This document shows positions 8,958 through 12,320 of a DNA stretch of 64,000 bases, in pieces; the first letter of the stretch is position 1; each line of letters starts with the position of its first letter. Where the stretch lies: contig JBEKTH010000011.1 of assembly GCA_049516255.1 (NCBI GenBank), forward strand, positions 10,348 to 74,347. The letters are read 5' to 3'. Below the pieces are notes generated by a model that was not told the origin of the DNA, made no database searches, and saw nothing but the letters and a program-made list of their open reading frames with translations. Source of the stretch: Verrucomicrobiota bacterium (lineage in GTDB: Bacteria; Verrucomicrobiota; Verrucomicrobiia; Limisphaerales; UBA11358). The position numbers and the translations under genes were made by a program.

Positions 8958-9296
8958 ATGAAGAAAATTGAAGCGATCATCAAACCGTTCAAACTCGAAG
9001 AAGTCAAGGACGCCCTCGGCGAAATCGGCATAGAAGGCATGACCGTGAGCGAGGTCAAAGGGTTTGGCCGTCAGAAGGGCCACACCGAAATCTATCGCGG
9101 CAGCGAATACACCGTGGATTTTCTGCCCAAGATAAAAATCGAACTCGTGGTGGCAGACAACCAGACCGACGCCGCGGTCGGCGCGATTGTCAAGGCGGCC
9201 AAGACCGGGAAGATCGGCGACGGCAAGGTCTTCGTGGCCAGCATCGAACAAGCCGTGCGCATTCGTACCGAAGAGAAGGGCGATGCCGCCGTTTAA
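8958..9296 (+). CDS. glnB: Nitrogen regulatory protein PII
   Basis: 112 aa starting [20 protein letters not shown]. The T-loop [21 protein letters not shown] has both Ser49 and Tyr51. Confidence 0.95.
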
Positions 9297-9332
9297 TCAG
9301 CGAACAACTTGAACCTCACTCGAATTAAAACC

Positions 9333-10928
9333 ATGAAACGATATTTACTGACCCTCGCTTTAATTACCACCACTGCATTCGGCGTCGCTTCACTGCGCGC
9401 GCAAACGAACACAATGGCATCCACCAACGCGCCGGTCGCGGCTTGGACGACCAATGCGCCAACGACCGAAGAGCGCCTGGAATCCGTCGAGGCGTATTTT
9501 CAGAACGGCGACCCAACCCTTCCTTACAAGGACACCAACGGCAACTGGACGGTGAATTTTGGGCTTGGTGCTTCCATCATCAACACCAACCTGATTAACA
9601 GCCAGGGCAACTATGTATCGTTCCCCGGCGCCGGTCACAACGCCTGGTTGCTGACCAGTACGGCGTTGGTGTTGTTTATGACGCTGCCCGGTCTGGCCCT
9701 GTTCTACGGCGGTCTCGTCCGCAAAAAGAACGTCCTGTCCGTGCTGGCCCAATGCTTCCTGATTACCGGTTTAACGACGATCCTGTGGATTATCTGCAGT
9801 TACGGGATGATCTTCGGCGGCGATGGCACCCCTACCGGCCCGTTGGGCATGACCCACGACTGGGTTAAAGGCATCGTCGGCAATCCCGGCGTTTGCTGGA
9901 TGTTCAAGGGCGTCACCTCGGCGCCGAATCCGGGTTACTCTTATTGGGTGTCGGAAAACGTCTATTCCATGTTTCAATTGATGTTCGCCATCATCACGCC
10001 GGCGCTGATCGTGGGTTCGATTGCAGAACGCATGAAATTCTCGGCCATCCTCGTTTTCATGACCCTGTGGATCCTGATTGTGTACAATGCGCAAGGTCAC
10101 ATGGTTTGGGGTGTCAACGGCATGATGAACGGCTGTTGGAACCCGGCCGCGACGATTAAAGGCCTGGACTTTGCCGGTGGTACGGTCGTGCACATGTCCT
10201 CCGGTTGGTCGGGTCTGGTGTTGTGCATCATCCTGGGCAAACGGCTTGGTTTCGGGAAGGAAAACTTCACCCCCCACAGCATCGTGTTGACTTACATTGG
10301 TGCTTCCATGTTGTGGGTCGGCTGGTACGGGTTCAATTCCGGCAGCGCGGTAGCGGGTGACGTGATTGCCGCCAATGCCTTCACCACCACCACGATTGCC
10401 ACGGCGATTGGTTCGTTCGTGTGGCCGATGTGGGAATGGGTTGTCAAAGGCAAGCCGAGCGTGCTTGGATTCTGCTCCGGCGCGGTGGCGGGCCTGGTGC
10501 TCATCACCCCTGCTTGCGGCTATGTACTGCCGTCAGGCGCCATCTGGATTGGCATTGCTGCCGGAACCATCCCTTGGTTCTTCTGCTACAAAGTCAAGGG
10601 TTGGCTGGGCATGGATGATGCGTTGGACGCCTGGAGCGTCCACGGCATCGGTGGTATGTGCGGTGCGATCATGACCGGCATGTTTGCCCGCCAGGCGGCC
10701 AATCCGAACCTGGCCACCAACCTGAGCAAAACCGTCACGGACCATATCTTCCAGCCGCAATTATGGGAGCAGATAAAAACCATCGGCGTATCGCTGGTGC
10801 TGTTCATTGTGGGCACGATTGTGATTGCCTACATCACCAAGATGCTGGTGGGCCTGCGGCCGACTGAGGAAGTCGAAATCGCCGGTCTCGACATCAACGA
10901 ACATGGTGAAGAGGGTTATCACTCGTAA
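9333..10928 (+). CDS. amtB: Ammonium transporter (Amt family) with long N-terminal secreted extension
   Basis: Amt signatures FAGGTVVHMSSG and AWSVHGIGGMCG. I set the start at the ATG at 9333 (MKRYLLTLAL signal-like sequence). Confidence 0.93.
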   Translation: MKRYLLTLALITTTAFGVASLRAQTNTMASTNAPVAAWTTNAPTTEERLESVEAYFQNGDPTLPYKDTNGNWTVNFGLGASIINTNLINSQGNYVSFPGAGHNAWLLTSTALVLFMTLPGLALFYGGLVRKKNVLSVLAQCFLITGLTTILWIICSYGMIFGGDGTPTGPLGMTHDWVKGIVGNPGVCWMFKGVTSAPNPGYSYWVSENVYSMFQLMFAIITPALIVGSIAERMKFSAILVFMTLWILIVYNAQGHMVWGVNGMMNGCWNPAATIKGLDFAGGTVVHMSSGWSGLVLCIILGKRLGFGKENFTPHSIVLTYIGASMLWVGWYGFNSGSAVAGDVIAANAFTTTTIATAIGSFVWPMWEWVVKGKPSVLGFCSGAVAGLVLITPACGYVLPSGAIWIGIAAGTIPWFFCYKVKGWLGMDDALDAWSVHGIGGMCGAIMTGMFARQAANPNLATNLSKTVTDHIFQPQLWEQIKTIGVSLVLFIVGTIVIAYITKMLVGLRPTEEVEIAGLDINEHGEEGYHS

Positions 10929-10946
10929 TTAAAAGAAGTCTCAACG

Positions 10947-10992
10947 CTGCGCCGGTTGCTGGCCAAAACCACAACCGGCGCAGTTTTTTTTC
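10947..10992 (+). terminator. Rho-independent terminator after amtB
   Basis: 12-bp stem ctgcgccggttg/caaccggcgcag followed by T8. Confidence 0.8.
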
Positions 10993-11049
10993 TCGAAACC
11001 AGGAGCCGGACGGGGGGTGATCCGGAAAGGTGGCCGTACAAGACTGAAT

Positions 11050-11898
11050 TTAGATCACCTGGACCACCAGGGCGGTCGTGTTGTCGCGGCCATCCTTGTT
11101 CAGTGATTCCTCCACCAGAAGATGCGCCAGATCAGGGACCATCCCGGCGGATTCATCCGGGCGCAATAATTCGACGAGATGCCGGTCGTACAATCCCTCC
11201 ACCAGTCCGTCCGAGCAAAGCAGAAAGGTGTCCCCGGCTTGATAAGCCACCGCGCCCACCTGCGGGTCCACGAACTGGTTGCCGCCGCCCAGGGCCTTTT
11301 GCAAGGCATTGCGCCGGGGATGAGTACGGGCTTCCCGCTCACTGATCTTGCCGTTCCGAAACAGCCAGCCAACATGCGTGTCATCGTGGCTGAGCTGCTG
11401 GATCCGGCTTTTCCGCGCCGGCAGATGATAAATCCGGCTATCGCCGACGTGGCTGAAATACATCCATCCCGGGGTGAACCAGCACAGGCTCAGAGTGGTT
11501 TCCATTCCTGAACATTCCTCGTAGCTGCCGCCGACGTATTGCAGCGCCCGGTGGATTTGATCAAACAATTCGAACAACACGTCCTCAAAACCGATTTCCA
11601 GGCCGGTCGCAGCTTGCTGGAACGACCGCGGCAGCAGGGTGGTGATTTTTTCGATTGCAATCTGGCTGGCGTGCTCGCCCGCCTTCGCCCCGCCCATGCC
11701 GTCGCTCACGGCAAAGGCAAAGTCCATGTCTGCCATCGAGGCCGTGCCGGTTTTTCCCAGACGATGTATTTCCTGCGCATCGAATCGCAATCCCAGAAAG
11801 GCGTCCTCGTTGTTGGGGCGGACCCTGCCGCGGTCCGTCCGTCCGGACCATTTCAGGGAGACGGGGGTGGTGATCGGGCGTATTTGATTGCGGTTCAT
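11050..11898 (-). CDS. PP2C-family Ser/Thr protein phosphatase
   Basis: 282 aa. RPNNEDAF, SDGMGG, GDSR, CSDGL and DNTT motifs in PP2C order. Confidence 0.9.
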   Translation of the reverse strand: MNRNQIRPITTPVSLKWSGRTDRGRVRPNNEDAFLGLRFDAQEIHRLGKTGTASMADMDFAFAVSDGMGGAKAGEHASQIAIEKITTLLPRSFQQAATGLEIGFEDVLFELFDQIHRALQYVGGSYEECSGMETTLSLCWFTPGWMYFSHVGDSRIYHLPARKSRIQQLSHDDTHVGWLFRNGKISEREARTHPRRNALQKALGGGNQFVDPQVGAVAYQAGDTFLLCSDGLVEGLYDRHLVELLRPDESAGMVPDLAHLLVEESLNKDGRDNTTALVVQVI

Positions 11899-12320
11899 GC
11901 CGGCGGCGTTGGCTCAAAACCCGGAAGGATGGCGGCCAGTTCAAAATCCACAATACAAAAGCGTCCGTCCGACTGGCGGTAGGTCACATTGCGAATGTCG
12001 GGATCATCATGCCGCACACCGAAGGGTTCCAGCTCGGCAAACAACTCCCGGATGCGCTCCGCGTCCAGATGTTCCACCCGGCTGCCGCAGTTGGTGGTGA
12101 CGATGCAGAGTTGCCCCGGATCGGTCTCGAGCAGCCGGGGTACGAACCCGCAGTGGCGGGCTTCGAGATGACGGAGAATCCGCACCTCGTTCGCGAACCG
12201 CGCCGGCGCGTCCGAACCATGATAAGCCTTGAGCACACGGCCGTCGAAGGCGAGATTCACGGTCGATCGCAGGGTGTCTTTGACTTGCAACATAGGGACT
12301 TCGTCATCAAGGTCCGGCAA
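11895..12320 (-). CDS. Minimal protein-kinase-like protein (141 aa, or 132 aa from the ATG at 12293)
   Basis: VLKAY (beta3 Lys), NEVRILRHL (alphaC Glu), HDDPDIRNV (HxDxxxxN catalytic loop) and IVDFELA (DFG-like). Its stop overlaps the PP2C start (ATGA). The ORF-track start is a TTG. The function is inferred. Confidence 0.5.
   Translation of the reverse strand: MPDLDDEVPMLQVKDTLRSTVNLAFDGRVLKAYHGSDAPARFANEVRILRHLEARHCGFVPRLLETDPGQLCIVTTNCGSRVEHLDAERIRELFAELEPFGVRHDDPDIRNVTYRQSDGRFCIVDFELAAILPGFEPTPPA

Follow-up and report, generated by a model that had tools for sequence, protein, structure and literature searches.

What does a small kinase-like gene, coupled to a phosphatase gene and set in the middle of a nitrogen-assimilation cluster, control? 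The question is raised by a 64,000-nucleotide stretch of DNA from a Verrucomicrobiota bacterium (assembly GCA_049516255.1, contig JBEKTH010000011.1, positions 10,348 to 74,347; the whole of this stretch is hereafter called the window), in which the cluster spans 8.9-15.4 kb. Between glnB-amtB, encoding a PII protein and an ammonium transporter, and glnII-glnA, encoding glutamine synthetases of type II (GSII) and type I (GSI), lies a two-gene module on the minus strand. Its first gene encodes a minimal protein-kinase-like protein, here called the mini-kinase, and its second gene a phosphatase of the PP2C (PPM) family, with glnII divergent from the kinase gene. A first-pass annotation had described this opposite-strand pair and its ATGA overlap correctly, and had read it as a candidate switch for the phosphorylation of PII at Ser49 outside the cyanobacteria.

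Here we present a set of sequence and structural features of the module, together with a survey of its genomic neighbourhood in related organisms. In Verrucomicrobiota the module is part of the nitrogen-assimilation system, and the gene that constantly accompanies it is glnII. Reversible control, by Ser/Thr phosphorylation, of GlnII or of a protein bound to GlnII is the reading put forward here; it is offered tentatively, as an explanation that falls somewhat short of probable.

The mini-kinase and its phosphatase partner

The first-pass annotation gave the kinase-like gene 141 amino acids (11895-12320). The open reading frame does reach a TTG at 12320, and its stop codon TGA overlaps the ATG of the PP2C gene as ATGA, but the protein is probably shorter. 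Because homologues measure 127-132 aa with the N-terminus MLxVKDT, and because public contigs with identical DNA are called with 132 aa, the real start is most likely the ATG at 12293 (132 aa) rather than the TTG (141 aa).

Across an alignment of 30 diverse family members, with identities down to 33%, the catalytic set is conserved at 90% or more and comprises Lys22 (beta3), Glu36 (alphaC), His95-x-Asp97-x4-Asn102 and Asp116-Phe-Glu. When the kinase sequence was compared directly with PDB chains, nothing meaningful came up (E >=0.26), so the fold was established with AlphaFold2 and Foldseek. The AlphaFold2 model calculated on the 30-member alignment reaches a predicted local distance difference test score (pLDDT) of 96.5 and a predicted template-modelling score (pTM) of 0.88. 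Foldseek delivered 329 matches in the PDB at E <=0.001, and the 50 that were listed are without exception kinases or kinase-like domains. The domain of about 125 residues ends about 10 residues past the DFE motif, without an activation segment and without the C-lobe helices. Judged by this model, the small protein is a protein-kinase-like fold with the full catalytic set, and the first-pass annotation is supported on this point; activity as a protein kinase is putative.

Homologues of the mini-kinase fall into 5859 clusters at 90% identity, mostly of 127-132 aa, and into as few as 272 clusters at 50% identity, so the family is narrow and clade-restricted. It is almost wholly confined to Verrucomicrobiota, with a few genomes labelled Planctomycetota; the named members are Verrucomicrobiota apart from one labelled Pirellulales, and none of the named family matches is cyanobacterial. 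At least 568 species-representative Verrucomicrobiota genomes carry the gene, and the close relatives are all metagenome-assembled genomes (MAGs) of Verrucomicrobiota with Limisphaerales, Pedosphaera-like or subdivision 3 labels. The most distant homologues are three orphans (L091, L173 and L174) of 145-151 aa with 39-45% identity, one of them labelled Pirellulales; the orphan in L174 has a gene of the histidine phosphatase family as its neighbour. Pfam and NCBIfam searches yielded no curated model for the family. In JGI and NCBI records the proteins of 127-132 aa bear the names 'PPM family protein phosphatase', 'serine/threonine protein phosphatase' or 'Bud32', none of which fits the domain; these names are probably annotation spill-over, partly from fused relatives.

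The phosphatase of the window has all its metal-binding motifs (NED, DGMGG, GDSR, SDG and DNTT) intact, and matches the NCBIfam model Stp1/IreP with an E value of 4e-49, below the cut-off. A PP2C gene follows directly downstream of the kinase gene in 61 of the 62 near and mid-range informative loci. In about a dozen representative clusters the two are naturally fused into proteins of 381-420 aa, with an N-terminal mini-kinase, a short linker and a complete PP2C; the AlphaFold2 model of one such fusion has a pLDDT of 81 and a pTM of 0.66, and its linker (residues 128-138) is disordered. Besides PP2C no other fusion partner of the mini-kinase was found, GlnII and PII included, and family members of odd length carry PP2C fragments or unannotated tails only. 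The translational coupling by ATGA in the window and the natural fusions elsewhere show that kinase and PP2C form one functional unit. Chance does not explain the arrangement, since hundreds of genomes have the pair and keep it within nitrogen loci.

Gene neighbourhoods across the family

Synteny was counted from the module loci towards glnII. The scan of close relatives covered 80 loci with kinases 67-83% identical to that of the window. A divergent glnII lies within 1 kb upstream in 54 of 71 loci, and convergent amtB and glnB lie downstream in 36 of 61. Where both flanks were available (54 loci), both neighbours are present in 26, glnII only in 15, glnB-amtB only in 5 and neither in 8. The gene glnA is near the module in few related loci, and its adjacency is not conserved.

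Loci that extend for >=1.5 kb upstream and >=3 kb downstream were further binned by identity to the window kinase. In the bins of >=75% (27 loci), 65-75% (31 loci), 55-65% (4 loci) and <55% (9 loci), PP2C accompanies the kinase in 26, 31, 4 and 6 loci, GlnII in 22, 25, 3 and 6, and PII in 15, 15, 0 and 0, respectively. Adjacency of glnB-amtB thus amounts to 30/58 in the close loci (kinase identity >=65%) versus 0/13 in the distant ones (p = 4e-4), whereas glnII is adjacent in 47/58 close and 9/13 distant loci, and in 9 of the 10 distant loci that keep PP2C. Taken over all informative loci, glnII adjoins the module in about 80%, at every level of divergence and in three gene arrangements.

The distant loci illustrate these arrangements. 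One fused gene (P0185) is followed after 34 bp by glnII on the same strand, another (P0277, Verrucomicrobiales) is preceded by glnII on the same strand, and at 49% identity (P0163) a divergent glnII is again found ahead of kinase and PP2C. PII and amtB are absent within 8-10 kb in all four distant loci, to which these three belong. A metagenome scan seeded with the fusion proteins gave a separate locus set, in which 25 of the 28 informative loci with a kinase have glnII as a neighbour (18 divergent; on the same strand, 4 downstream and 3 upstream), and PII or amtB adjoins the kinase in only 2. As a control, 49 loci from the same scan with generic PP2C genes and no mini-kinase were inspected, and GlnII, PII and AmtB occur within 6 kb in none of them (Fisher p = 3e-17). 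In a further locus (L092, 3067-5212) two GSII paralogues lie in tandem behind a fused kinase-PP2C gene; their identities to the GlnII of the window are 68% and 55%.

Adjacency to glnII survives gene fusion and three orientations, and it is still seen where the kinase has diverged to about 45% and GlnII to 46% identity; the other flanking genes are entirely different between lineages. PII adjacency is clade-specific; glnII adjacency is not. For the first-pass annotation this means that its nitrogen-linked kinase/phosphatase unit holds, the pair being conserved beside nitrogen genes in relatives, and that PII as the specific partner is not supported, with 0 of 13 distant loci retaining it.

Candidate targets of the module

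GlnII rather than PII is favoured as the target because glnII adjacency persists where PII adjacency disappears. In the mechanism proposed here, the mini-kinase would use ATP to phosphorylate Ser or Thr on GlnII or on a GlnII-bound protein, and the PP2C would strip that phosphate. Together the two would exert reversible covalent on/off control of GSII, a functional counterpart of the adenylylation of GSI by GlnE. As both proteins of the module lack a sensor domain, information on the nitrogen status would have to be supplied from elsewhere, and the PII protein encoded next door would be a plausible carrier, as for GlnE in E. coli. Within this scheme we infer that the mini-kinase is active as a protein kinase, that its substrate is GlnII, which way the regulation runs, and any part that PII plays.

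The GlnII of the window matches S. coelicolor GSII (PDB 4bax) with an E value of 1.2e-84, and the NCBIfam GlnII model with an E value of 4e-103 and 345 bits, below the 500-bit cut-off. All module-linked GSII proteins share a GSI-like ATP-site motif, WNGSG(M/F/L)H (WNGSGMH in the window), where S. coelicolor and yeast GSII have WNGAG(A/C)H; like the GlnII of the window they stay below the NCBIfam GlnII cut-off, and they appear to be a distinct GSII lineage. When 75 module-linked GlnII proteins were compared with the S. coelicolor and yeast enzymes, four Ser/Thr residues were conserved in the linked proteins and absent from the other two, namely T70, T138, S188 and S229. The first three were rejected as a phosphosite signature, being variable in distant linked GlnII proteins. 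S229, in WNGSGMH, is invariant, yet it is a standard GSI residue that is also present in the GlnA of the window (NGSGMH), and is therefore an ATP-site or clade feature and not phosphosite evidence.

Several points weigh against control of GlnII. The phosphosite comparison delivered no Ser or Thr that is both invariant in module-linked GlnII and absent from other glutamine synthetases. An adjacent glnII is missing in about 20% of the informative loci, and the three orphan homologues have neither PP2C nor glutamine synthetase genes nearby; their function may differ. The loci are phylogenetically related and are not independent events, so the counts given above overstate independence. GlnII is a candidate substrate by gene neighbourhood, and adjacency can stem from co-regulation in a nitrogen cluster instead of a relation between enzyme and substrate. 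Finally, among minimal kinases of similar structure Bud32 and Rio function as ATPases and ArkI phosphorylates RNA, so the mini-kinase may not be active as a protein kinase. A dedicated GSII kinase/phosphatase in which the neighbouring Ser49-type PII would serve as the nitrogen sensor steering both activities, or as a second substrate, is regarded as rather doubtful.

The module could also target a nitrogen regulator, be it an NtrC-like sigma-54 activator, another transcription factor of the divergent glnII promoter, or AmtB. In most loci the module is divergent from glnII, which is the classic layout of regulator and target, and sigma-54-type promoter-like sites stand before glnII and glnB (Table 1). 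The pattern TGGYAY-N6-TGCT has only two matches in 64 kb, with 0.29 expected by chance, and TGGCAY-N5-TTGCT occurs before glnII at the same position and in the same orientation in 13 related loci. This sequence pattern suggests NtrC-type control of the glnB and glnII operons in Verrucomicrobiota; the pattern scan of the window found no such site ahead of the kinase operon. What makes a regulator target unlikely is that the same-strand, near-contiguous gene orders resemble operon membership (for instance the 34-bp gap between fused gene and glnII in locus L087), and that no activator gene is conserved beside the module.

Just as unlikely is a mini-kinase that is no protein kinase, acting instead as an ATPase switch or as a small-molecule or RNA kinase of the Bud32/Rio, APH or ArkI type, with the PP2C in another role. 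The top Foldseek match is the archaeal RNA kinase Ark1 (171 aa; E 5e-7, template-modelling (TM) score 0.68, 25% identity), which also has DFE; next come Rio2, the kinase domain of CurKC, Bud32/PRPK, CK2 and NleH1, and Ark1 and all of these have probability 1.00. The sole Pfam match is APH (PF01636), a family of small-molecule phosphotransferases, with 28.9 bits at a cut-off of 23.2; it is partial, covering residues 79-130 and profile positions 144-198 of 239, where the catalytic loop lies. The absent activation segment and substrate-binding C-lobe helices point the same way. Set against this are the obligate pairing or fusion with a PPM-family protein phosphatase whose metal sites are intact, and the rejection of two of these identities. 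Identity with Bud32 was rejected at 19.9 bits against the TIGR03724 cut-off of 125, in a context of PP2C and glnII and without KEOPS genes. ArkI has the catalytic triplet HGQ and a C-terminal helix with the RNA-binding motif YKR (PMC9095486); the mini-kinase retains the catalytic Asp of HxD, reading H-D-D, and has neither that helix nor the YKR motif, so this identity was rejected as well.

The PII Ser49 switch of the first-pass annotation, in which the pair would act like the cyanobacterial PII-P/PphA system, is now decidedly improbable. Its reading of the T-loop is borne out, with Ser49 and Tyr51 in a loop of the RGSEY type, and so is the background it relied on: according to the literature and alignments, E. 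coli PII has RGAEY with Ala49 as in enteric bacteria, cyanobacterial PII has RGSEY, PphA is a PP2C, and the cyanobacterial Ser49 kinase was still unidentified as of 2025. The Ser49 T-loop is identical in all 42 canonical module-adjacent PII copies, second paralogues included; through this very invariance there is no covariation signal between residue 49 and the module. In favour of the switch there are also the convergent glnB-amtB directly downstream in the 36/61 close loci (30/58 binned), a phosphatase of the right enzyme class, and the fact that a switch acting on PII itself could do without a sensor domain.

Other evidence speaks against the switch. PII adjacency is lost outside the close clade while glnII adjacency is kept, close loci with glnII and without PII outnumber the reverse by 15 to 5, and the fused versions stand in operon-like tandem with glnII without a PII gene within 10 kb. 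The nearest solved structures to the window PII are GlnB of N. meningitidis and E. coli (RGAEY) and the Aquifex protein (RGTEY), with the Anabaena protein (RGSEY) only after these, and in the alignment position 49 varies naturally between Ala, Thr and Ser. Ser49 is kept but left unphosphorylated in Anabaena, Prochlorococcus and plants according to the literature. The analogy with PphA did not hold for the phosphatase either, of which the nearest solved relative is M. tuberculosis PstP (E 3.7e-27), ahead of the tPphA entries (E 1.8e-21 to 1.8e-19) and Stp1 (about 1e-17); by these comparisons the PP2C is a generic bacterial PPM and not specifically PphA-like. For the question of the PII Ser49 kinase the outcome is mostly negative, and the mini-kinase family is a weak candidate.

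PII proteins of other kinds were also encountered in related loci. In a Verrucomicrobiae MAG (L077, 7429-12869) cyanate lyase, a PII-like protein, glnII, mini-kinase, PP2C and glnA form a same-strand run, and the PII-like protein has a non-canonical T-loop, FPVALVEQTTYTGLGAP. A second kind of PII, about 60% identical and with the unusual T-loop GRQKGRTEPFRGTAVSSTF or GRTEPSNGNSPGITF, is encoded in two loci (L065, 5615-5953; L070, 5582-5917) about 3 kb from glnII, with a MoxR-type AAA ATPase in between.

That the pair is a general-purpose Ser/Thr signalling pair, placed in the nitrogen cluster by inherited gene order without functional meaning, is very improbable: all carriers belong to one phylum and shared ancestry inflates the synteny counts, but the glnII adjacency outlasts fusion, reorientation and divergence of both proteins while the remaining flanking genes are wholly different between lineages.

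Locus layout and comparison with known systems

The features of the nitrogen cluster are summarized in Table 1. The same DNA is present in identical form in ENA and JGI metagenome assemblies.

Table 1. Features of the nitrogen-assimilation cluster, in window coordinates
Feature	Position	Strand	Basis
Sigma-54-type promoter-like site TGGCATCGCCGTTGCT	8797-8812	+	about 146 nt upstream of glnB
glnB/glnK-type PII, 112 aa	8958-9296	+	Pfam P-II E 5.6e-33; NCBIfam PII models E 1e-50
PII Ser49 codon AGC	9102-9104	+	direct sequence read
amtB, ammonium transporter	9309-10928	+	Pfam Ammonium_transp E 3.5e-103 (residues 112-537); TIGR00836 above cut-off
PP2C/PPM Ser/Thr phosphatase, 282 aa (module gene 2)	11050-11898	-	Pfam PP2C_2 57.7 bits (cut-off 24)
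Minimal protein-kinase-like gene, 132 aa (module gene 1)	11895-12293	-	homologues, AlphaFold2, Foldseek, public gene call
Intergenic region between divergent kinase operon and glnII	12294-12714		layout recurs in 83 related loci, spacers 170-830 bp
Sigma-54-type promoter-like site TGGTATTTGACCTGCT	12612-12627	+	about 88 nt upstream of glnII
glnII, type II (eukaryote-like) glutamine synthetase, 346 aa	12715-13755	+	Pfam Gln-synt_N and Gln-synt_C
glnA, type I glutamine synthetase, 470 aa	13984-15396	+	TIGR00653 E 8e-207

The amtB gene encodes 539 aa as the longest open reading frame and 531 aa in public gene calls, which places the start at 9333. AmtB has an N-terminal extension of about 110 residues (9309-9640) ahead of the Pfam Amt domain, which begins at residue 112; the extension consists of a signal-peptide-like hydrophobic stretch followed by a Thr/Asn-rich segment. 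Neither glnD nor glnE is among the large open reading frames of the window. An open reading frame of 181 aa just downstream of glnA (16231-16776, minus strand) is without a Pfam match. In an Rfam search the intergenic regions showed no known RNA element, a glutamine riboswitch included, and the only matches in the window were 4 tRNAs, and scans for sigma-70 promoters and terminators remained at background level. On either side of the cluster there are several large glycoside hydrolases (GH35, GH31 with a PA14 domain, and GH9; 6137-8581, 56273-59107 and 59711-61492) and sugar or solute transporters, as would fit a Verrucomicrobium that degrades polysaccharides.

Kinase/phosphatase pairs and PP2C control of nitrogen signalling are already known kinds of system. 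The kinase family, its size, the PP2C fusion and the tie to GSII appear to be undescribed so far: the literature searched here yielded neither a GSII kinase nor a kinase-PP2C pair in Verrucomicrobia, and no comparable post-translational control of bacterial GSII. Bacterial GSI is the textbook case of covalent enzyme control. If the proposal for GlnII is true, no bacterial type II glutamine synthetase would have been described before with an on/off control of the covalent kind, and the domain that performs it (about 125 residues) would be the smallest known of any protein kinase; the system would be a phosphorylation-based equivalent of the PII-GlnE-GSI cascade. The mini-kinase also shows how small a protein-kinase-like domain with a complete catalytic set can be. 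Verrucomicrobiota are abundant in soil, peat and freshwater, and a GSII module would fill a gap in the control of the enzyme.

With the cyanobacterial PII-P/PphA system the module shares an RGSEY-type PII encoded nearby, a PP2C in a nitrogen context and the logic of reversible Ser/Thr phosphorylation; it differs in its conserved neighbour, glnII instead of glnB, and in the generic character of its phosphatase. Bud32/PRPK, Rio, ArkI and NleH1 resemble the mini-kinase in their bilobal fold with a truncated C-lobe, in HxDxxxxN and in DFx (DFE as in ArkI), with query TM-scores of 0.59-0.69. The mini-kinase domain is shorter than theirs (about 125 versus 159-270 residues), shows 15-25% identity to them, lacks a KEOPS, ribosome or tRNA context, and is unique in being paired or fused with PP2C.

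Among enzymes with a control system of their own, the isocitrate dehydrogenase kinase/phosphatase AceK likewise provides a dedicated kinase and phosphatase for one central metabolic enzyme. AceK carries out both reactions in one active site, whereas the module has two separate catalytic domains from different superfamilies. In plants, phosphorylation of Ser regulates type II glutamine synthetase, the same class of target. The kinases responsible there are large, depend on calcium and have no relation to the mini-kinase family, and to our knowledge no dedicated gene-linked module accompanies them. A functional analogy would exist with the PII-controlled GlnE acting on GSI, in that the role proposed for the module is likewise that of a reversible covalent glutamine synthetase switch with two activities, sometimes in one polypeptide and possibly under PII control. 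The two systems are unrelated in sequence and fold, and the module would work by phosphorylation instead of adenylylation, and on GSII instead of GSI.

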